This document shows, piece by piece, positions 31,454-32,154 of a stretch of 64,000 nt of DNA; position 1 is the first letter of the stretch; every line of letters begins with the position of its first letter. The stretch is from assembly GCF_058153355.1 (NCBI RefSeq), contig NZ_CM177019.1. One strand, written 5' to 3'. A program made the position numbers and the translations under genes. The notes beneath the pieces are model-generated. The model was not told the DNA's origin and did not search any database. It saw only the letters and a list, made by a program, of their open reading frames with translations.

Positions 31454-31900
31454 TTATGAACTCCTTGTGAAATTATCAACTGCTGTTTTACGAACAACCC
31501 GTCGTTAATCCCCGACAGGTTAGAGTGTGATGCGGCTCACATCAGGAACCACACCCTTTTCTTTATTCGAGTTACAGGCACACGTAATTAGCACCTACCG
31601 AAAAACTCTTTTATGGTGTTTAAATATATTTTTAGTCAATTTCAGAACACGGTCACATAAGCTAAAAATATATCAACATCAACAGTAGAATTATCCATAA
31701 CGTATCCTCACCCCCATAAAAACCTACAATTTCGTCAAAAATCAATTATTACAACGCTTACTTCACCATCGTTCCGGCACGCAATTAAGATATTCCTTAA
31801 AGGAATTTCTTATGATGTATTGCTAGCAATTAATTAATTTATAAAACCATACATAAAACTTATTAATCAATTTAATAAACACATATAAATCAATGTGTTA

Positions 31901-31916
31901 TGGCACTTTATTGGCC
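31901..31916 (+). promoter_or_regulatory. Sigma-54-type promoter candidate about 240 bp upstream of tssB
   Basis: tggcactttattggcc: perfect -24 TGGCAC, GG-N10-GC spacing, imperfect -12 element (TGGC instead of TTGC). Confidence 0.25.
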
Positions 31917-32154
31917 GTAAAATTATATTCACCAAGTCTATAAATACCAAATTGATTTCACTAACATGTATTAATAATGAAGGATACATCTCTTTCAAAA
32001 ATATAAATAGTTCTTTTAATATTTTATTTCACGAGTAGAATACCGATCACAACAGAAGGAAGGCTACATTATCTAACTGCCACTGAAACGGTATTGTCGG
32101 TATTTGTATGCAGTACGAAAATGCTGTGCTCATGGCCTGAACGGGAACATTTTT

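Follow-up and report, generated by a model that had tools for sequence, protein, structure and literature searches.

The hcp-tssB spacer of an E. coli T6SS2 locus

The window analysed here, i.e. the whole stretch of 64,000 nucleotides, is a segment of an E. coli chromosome that shares 97-99% identity with many complete genomes. At its left end lies a portion of the Flag-2 lateral-flagellar locus with lafK (678-1664, minus strand). To the right of Flag-2 lie the housekeeping genes yafL through fadE, ivy and yafV, and then T6SS effector, immunity and vgrG genes. The effector genes are followed by hcp on the minus strand, a 701-bp spacer and the tssB operon, which runs in the order tssB-tssC-tssE-tssF-tssG-tagH-tssJ-tssK-tssL-tssH-vasI-tssA-tssM-vasL-hcp and ends before yafT. 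Pfam searches confirmed Hcp, VipA/TssB, VasI and LafK. The hcp gene next to the spacer is of the hcp2B type (30935-31453, minus strand; T6SS_HCP, E = 1.5e-32) and is 100% identical to its RefSeq orthologue, while tssB, also named vipA (32155-32658, plus strand; T6SS_VipA, E = 1.2e-44), was identified by both Pfam and RefSeq annotation.

Gene content and order correspond to the E. coli T6SS2 (APEC/EHEC-type) locus, as judged from the RefSeq annotation of a 99% identical genome. Furthermore, the T6SS2 primers designed for APEC DE719 (hcp2B, vipA and Phcp2B) match the window with 0-2 mismatches. The spacer is the already studied two-way promoter region of E. coli T6SS2, known as hcp2B-vipA2 or hcp3-tssB, and shares its locus, its divergent layout and its long AT-rich spacer with APEC DE719, TW-XM and EHEC EDL933. 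The spacer of strain XM (TW-XM) is 96% identical to that of the window. This T6SS occupies one chromosomal site and exists as two allelic families, the window type in 552 genomes and the EHEC type in about 2,290. Although the two families share only about 72-75% identity in flanking genes (tssBC, tssM), the spacer footprints described below are common to both.

The sequence-only reading had described the spacer as an AT-rich divergent control region between hcp and tssB, a description with which the ORFs and Pfam matches agree (31454-32154, 701 bp). Its GC content is 0.331, and that of its core (31600-32030) 0.265, far below the values of the window (0.508) and of the T6SS genes (0.561), as is typical of H-NS-silenced regions. 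A long AT-rich divergent spacer of about 500-740 bp, with a GC content of 0.28-0.38, is kept across some 19 enterobacterial loci, one of which has a 4-kb gap in place of a spacer of that length. The lowest GC content of the window (about 0.30) is found outside the spacer, in the effector/immunity genes left of vgrG (23800-26700). At the centre of the spacer, we also observed a palindrome, ATTCCTTAAAGGAAT (31792-31806), that is kept in E. coli and E. whittamii and of which EHEC keeps the left half; it is a possible regulator site.

The missing activator and the sigma-54-like string

T6SS clusters governed by VasH and RpoN (V. cholerae VCA0107-0121 type) have the same gene order as the window, tssB-C-E-F-G-tagH-J-K-L-tssH-[vasH]-vasI-tssA-tssM-vasL. 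The sequence-only reading had held that the cluster lacks a VasH-type activator and that the only sigma-54 activator in the window is the receiver-less LafK of Flag-2, and our results agree with it on each of these points. tssH (41410-44142) and vasI (44139-44882; Pfam VasI) overlap by 4 nt on the plus strand (44139-44142), leaving no room for vasH in the slot that holds the activator gene in VasH-type clusters. tblastn with Halomonas VasH matched lafK alone, and searches with LafK and Halomonas VasH revealed no second sigma-54 activator in the window. LafK, whose identification as a sigma-54 enhancer-binding protein is supported by Pfam, tblastn and a RefSeq orthologue, contains a Sigma54_activat domain (residues 6-172), an AAA lid and an HTH_8 domain; because the first of these begins at residue 6, the protein has no receiver domain. 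It is the sole enhancer-binding protein of the window, at a distance of 30 kb from the string, and none is encoded in the T6SS cluster.

vasH was also absent from all enterobacterial loci that include the junction of tssH and vasI, about 17 in number. The ancestral arrangement is shown by Halomonas sp. A40-4 (fetched via TssF), where the gene for a VasH-type sigma-54 activator of 530 aa separates tssH from vasI (19466-21058 of locus L022) and a 14.6-bit sigma-54 site lies 57 nt upstream of hcp. The latter site served as a positive control for the matrix used here.

The string proposed as a sigma-54 element facing tssB, TGGCAC-N5-TGGC, is indeed present on the plus strand (TGGCAC, 31901-31906; N5, 31907-31911; TGGC, 31912-31915), and ends at 31915 rather than at 31916, which was one base too far. 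It has GG (31902-31903, -25/-24) and GC (31914-31915, -13/-12) at the canonical spacing. The corresponding 17-mer, ATGGCACTTTATTGGCC (31900-31916, plus strand), was assessed by matrix score, shuffling and conservation, and we judged it to be a chance near-match.

Using a position weight matrix built from 135 E. coli sigma-54 sites that were bound in ChIP-seq (Bonocora et al. 2015, PMC4591121), we obtained a score of 5.8 bits for the string. The lowest-scoring bound site reaches 6.69 bits; the median is 14.4 bits for all bound sites and 15.2 bits for the 42 intergenic sense sites among them. The low score results from the base at -14, which is G in the string (31913), whereas the 135 bound sites have T at this position in 127 cases and G in none; this penalty derives from base frequencies in the 135-site sample and not from a binding measurement. 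In V. cholerae, sigma-54 ChIP-seq likewise found the thymine at -14 to be 'highly conserved' (PMC3439928). A single substitution, G31913T, would lift the string to 13.8 bits.

Matches of this quality are common by chance, as 144 positions of the window score at least 5.8 bits and a site of this strength turned up in 63% of the spacer shuffles, which preserved dinucleotides. A looser consensus search returned 31 matches in the window against 45 expected. Furthermore, the transcription start predicted from the string (about 31927) would give tssB a 228-nt leader, whereas the leaders of real intergenic sites have a median length of 44.5 nt and reach 200 nt in only 3 of 42 cases.

The spacer was found in 552 of 5,426 complete E. 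coli genomes, and the exact allele of the window in 5 of these 552. At least 309 genomes, including the type strain, carry TGTAAC...TAGC, in which GG is lost, and at least 159 carry TGGCAT...TGAC, in which GC is lost. Hence, at least 468 of the 552 genomes (at least 85%) have lost GG or GC. Strain XM (TW-XM), whose T6SS is inducible, carries the TGTAAC allele and lacks the motif. Compared to the published T6SS2 loci, the window represents a rare allele, and the string results from the bases that happen to occupy two variable positions. Alignment A1, which comprises six E. coli alleles, E. whittamii and one Pseudocitrobacter MAG, has only 5 invariant columns among the 17 of the motif, GG and GC not included, and the motif was not found in E. 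whittamii or Pseudocitrobacter. The 696-bp EHEC spacer contains no sigma-54-like site (best match, 3.0 bits), and a scan of 19 enterobacterial spacers with the matrix revealed no consistently placed sigma-54 site. Judged from these alignments, the string is allele-specific and lineage-specific.

The promoter-prediction scoring that the sequence-only reading had suggested as a check therefore places the string below every bound E. coli sigma-54 site, and with G at -14 and no conservation it is a weak chance near-match to the sigma-54 consensus, not a promoter. It resembles the inert or intragenic E. coli sigma-54 sites of Bonocora et al. 2015 in having GG-N10-GC without an obvious activator, but falls short of the 6.7 bits or more reached by the bound sites of that study, all of which have a base other than G at -14. 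More generally, GG-N10-GC in AT-rich DNA is no evidence of a sigma-54 promoter unless the thymine at -14, the overall score and conservation hold as well.

AT-rich DNA bound by H-NS is rich in promoter-like sequences, a point in favor of the motif region belonging to an additional upstream sigma-70 promoter, which would add to a set of start sites in the spacer. A promoter scan called two candidates of this kind, ATGGCA-18-TATATT on the plus strand (31900-31929) and TTGGTA-17-TATAAT on the minus strand (31950-31922), and several transcription start sites are attributed to the orthologous EHEC spacer (Kim et al. 2022, as cited in PMC13141884). However, the scan returned 3 sites against 4.2 expected in shuffles, the hexamers vary among E. 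coli alleles, E. whittamii has lost them, and the motif region lies well beyond 31663, the far end of the hcp promoter fragment with experimentally observed activity. We consider this explanation unlikely. As an observation in its own right, TTGGTA-17-TATAAT is near-consensus, points toward hcp beside the string, and is retained within E. coli but not in E. whittamii; it may correspond to one of the start sites that the citing study attributes to EHEC.

The string could also be a recently arisen, very weak site for the sigma-54 holoenzyme in a small E. coli sublineage, either inert or mildly interfering with overlapping sigma-70-like elements; it would be a neutral precursor that is one substitution away from a strong site. 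The single G-to-T change at -14 that would yield 13.8 bits, the confinement of the allele to about 5 genomes, the sigma-70-like hexamers that overlap the string on both strands, and the finding that E. coli has well over a hundred sigma-54-bound sites, most of them inert (PMC4591121), are all compatible with this scenario. Nevertheless, the string scores lower than all experimentally bound sites, among which G at -14 does not occur, and we saw no sign of selection, as the flanks vary freely and the few invariant columns of the motif in alignment A1 include neither GG nor GC. We regard this scenario as very unlikely.

Finally, it is highly improbable that the string acts as a functional sigma-54 promoter of the tssB operon, activated by LafK or another chromosomal enhancer-binding protein in replacement of a lost VasH. 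This would account for the perfect TGGCAC and the 10-nt spacing of GG and GC in the orientation of tssB, for a cluster syntenic with VasH-type clusters yet devoid of vasH, and for lafK lying 30 kb from the string; it is countered by a -14 base and a score outside the range of all 135 bound sites, by a string no better than shuffled sequence, destroyed in most genomes including the inducible strain XM, and absent from the sister species and EHEC, and by the unusually long leader. Moreover, RpoN and VasH of V. cholerae drive hcp and vgrG3 and not vipA/vipB (PMC3439928), while the string faces tssB, the wrong gene for the VasH paradigm, and no sigma-54 site facing hcp was found in the window spacer, where the best minus-strand match reaches 3.5 bits and lies inside an RNA hairpin. 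In favor of a role for sigma-54, rpoN dependence has been shown genetically for a VasH-less T6SS of K. pneumoniae, which is a different cluster (PMC7108748); sigma-54 may therefore influence enterobacterial T6SS indirectly. In the papers on E. coli T6SS2 regulation cited here (APEC, EHEC), sigma-54 is not invoked, and a 2023 review does not list a sigma-54 regulator for E. coli T6SSs. The cross-regulation by LafK or sigma-54 that the sequence-only reading had raised thus finds no support in a string this weak and unconserved. The practical value of this result is negative, in that a tempting but wrong lead, control of an E. coli T6SS by sigma-54 or LafK, is removed.

Several other sigma-54-like matches were inspected. 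Aligned weak matches upstream of hcp (window, 3.5 bits; E. whittamii, 8.4 bits; C. werkmanii, 12.5 bits) were considered as a decayed promoter from the time of VasH and rejected, as they fall within the first covarying stem-loop described below and reflect RNA structure rather than a sigma-54 relic. In some genera, matches were seen upstream of tssB at a distance of 36-69 nt (12.9 bits in Lelliottia and 11.9 bits in C. youngae). They lie within a conserved leader helix and were also rejected; their E. coli counterpart has a spacing one base short and AG in place of GG, and is therefore not a sigma-54 site. Three sense sites of at least 13 bits within tssM (46448, 47087 and 49474, plus strand) account for three of the window's five sites of at least 12.8 bits, and were treated as chance in coding sequence; EHEC keeps only the one at 46448, with TC in place of GC at -12.

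The spacer between lafK and fliM (1665-2050) contains no detectable sigma-54 site. Just downstream of lafK, we observed a strong sigma-54-type site of 14.4 bits, CAGGCGCAAATTATGCA (617-633, minus strand), which falls within the 5' end of the Flag-2 fliE homologue as annotated. It is probably the real LafK/sigma-54 promoter of the fliE operon, and its location suggests that the start of fliE is mis-annotated. The best sigma-54-type match of the window, CTGGCACATACATTGCC (55083-55099, minus strand; 14.6 bits), lies in the housekeeping region right of yafT and is not among the 135 high-stringency K-12 sites.

Conserved footprints and leaders on both sides of the spacer

To locate conserved elements on the tssB side, the tssB-proximal 260 nt were aligned from about 20 loci. 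A sigma-70-type hexamer, TAGAAT (32036-32041, plus strand), stood out: TAnnnT preceded by G is found at the aligned position in 19 of 19 enterobacterial loci and in EHEC, and all six bases of TAGAAT are invariant in alignment A1. From conservation alone, we infer that TAGAAT is the -10 element of the tssB operon promoter, with a predicted start near 32047-32049. Two boxes lie upstream of it. The first, an A/T-tract inverted repeat with the consensus AAAAAGnnCTTTTAAAAT (32003-32022, plus strand), covers the -35/UP region, is kept across genera and in EHEC, and is a candidate activator site or UP element. The second, GGATACATCTCTTT (31982-31995, plus strand; consensus ATACnnCTCTTT), is kept in most genera and in EHEC and represents a candidate regulator site. 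Together, the box ATACnnCTCTTT, the box AAAAAGnnCTTTTAAAAT and a GnGTAnnAT -10 motif form a cross-genus footprint (31982-32041, plus strand), all parts of which are also found in EHEC.

By direct reading, the -35 element of this putative promoter is weak, either CTTTTA or TTTTAA, and the consensus scan made no call of the TAGAAT promoter. A weak -35 embedded in conserved boxes suggests that the promoter depends on an activator. Given the several start sites cited for EHEC, there may also be more promoters in the spacer than this one.

Transcription from the predicted start would produce a conserved tssB 5' leader of about 107 nt (32048-32154, plus strand), for which a consensus fold of the leader alignment (A2) predicted two long-range helices (32079-32082 with 32133-32136, and 32088-32094 with 32121-32127). 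In these helices, 93.7% of the cells were paired versus 21-50% with slid partners. We rated the helix evidence as weak because only one pair showed a compensatory change.

On the hcp side, the promoter fragment defined in APEC DE719 could be placed at 31454-31663 (minus strand) by mapping its primers. The number of mismatches is 2 for Phcp2BEMSA-F (31643-31663), 0 for Phcp2BEMSA-R (31440-31460) and 0 for the deletion primer (31618-31639). The APEC DE719 equivalent of 31440-31663 displayed promoter activity in lacZ assays and bound CpxR-P in EMSA, and the shift required the distal part corresponding to 31640-31663, as it was lost upon its removal (PMC6534853). A search for the hcp -10 and -35 elements based on conservation across loci gave no assignment.

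Alignment of 13 enterobacterial loci (alignment A3) revealed two stem-loops in the hcp 5' leader (31496-31553, minus strand), H1 at 31531-31553 and H2 at 31496-31521. Compensatory changes were observed in 9 of the 15 pairs, the observed score was reached by none of 500 shuffles, and slid controls scored far lower. The pairing is strand-specific, with 92% in the hcp sense versus 74% in the antisense orientation and 38 G-U cells. An Rfam scan of 30800-32800 at a permissive E-value returned only spurious matches to eukaryotic miRNAs and snoRNAs.

Probable silencing and activation of the spacer

The alternative offered by the sequence-only reading, silencing of the AT-rich region, agrees with published H-NS repression of orthologous loci (PMC5874247, PMC5363993, PMC13141884). 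In strain TW-XM, inactivation of hns up-regulates clpV2, hcp2A and hcp2B; both operons are induced by duck serum, no effect of Fur was seen, and the authors describe the mechanism of derepression as unknown (PMC5874247). In EHEC, hcp increases 60-fold upon deletion of hns (PMC5363993). In APEC DE719, deletion of cpxR lowers expression of the hcp2B operon and not that of vipA (PMC6534853). These H-NS and CpxR data come from other strains, whose spacer is either 96% identical or belongs to the EHEC allele family (72% identity). Silencing of the AT-rich spacer by H-NS is thus supported and already published for orthologous loci; derepression in hns mutants was observed at those loci, and H-NS occupancy of the window spacer is presumed from them. 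The spacer has in common with the H-NS-silenced T6SS promoters of Salmonella SPI-6, EHEC T6SS and V. parahaemolyticus T6SS1 an AT-rich regulatory spacer within a horizontally acquired cluster. Serum, DMEM and CpxR each appear to make a partial contribution to anti-silencing of E. coli T6SS2. A 2026 study of EHEC still calls the hcp3-tssB bidirectional promoter unknown, reports no single activating condition, and observed T6SS mRNA without protein (PMC13141884).

Taken together, these observations make it very probable that the spacer is the T6SS2 bidirectional control region, with an H-NS-silenced, CpxR-activated hcp promoter and a sigma-70-type tssB promoter, in which the string has no role and LafK is uninvolved. 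The AT-rich core of the spacer would be silenced by H-NS. The hcp operon would be transcribed from a promoter located within about 210 bp of hcp and directly activated by phosphorylated CpxR, giving a transcript whose leader carries the two conserved stem-loops. The tssB operon would most likely be transcribed from a sigma-70-family promoter with the -10 TAGAAT conserved across Enterobacteriaceae, the weak -35 in its conserved boxes suggesting activator dependence, and would start with the leader of about 107 nt. TGGCAC-N5-TGGC would be a lineage-specific chance near-match. For this bidirectional control region, H-NS repression, CpxR binding and activity of an hcp-proximal promoter were shown by others in orthologous loci and would extend to the window by analogy, while for the tssB promoter, the -10, the start site and the dependence on an activator are predicted from sequence comparison.

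The region itself, its repression by H-NS and the activation of the hcp promoter by CpxR were therefore already known, and only the cross-genus footprint and the covarying hcp leader are new, as leads rather than findings. The -10, the boxes and the leaders are common to the EHEC and window spacers, and the footprint, comprising the -10 hexamer, the two upstream boxes and the structured leaders, offers concrete targets for studying how a silenced system switches on. It is possible, although we hold it only tentatively, that the conserved hcp and tssB 5' leaders constitute an undescribed cis-regulatory RNA layer of enterobacterial T6SS2, and that together with the tssB boxes they mark activator and post-transcriptional control. 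If so, control through the leaders could explain why EHEC produces T6SS mRNA with little protein after deletion of hns or promoter swapping.

A further hairpin was observed at the other end of hcp. Just downstream of its stop codon (30895-30924, minus strand) lies a 12-bp perfect inverted repeat (ACAACATCCTGC / GCAGGATGTTGT), after which comes a T-run on the hcp-sense strand. A terminator scan did not flag this hairpin, although the inverted repeat is visible by eye, and it looks like the terminator hairpin in region I of 'h3R' in EHEC.
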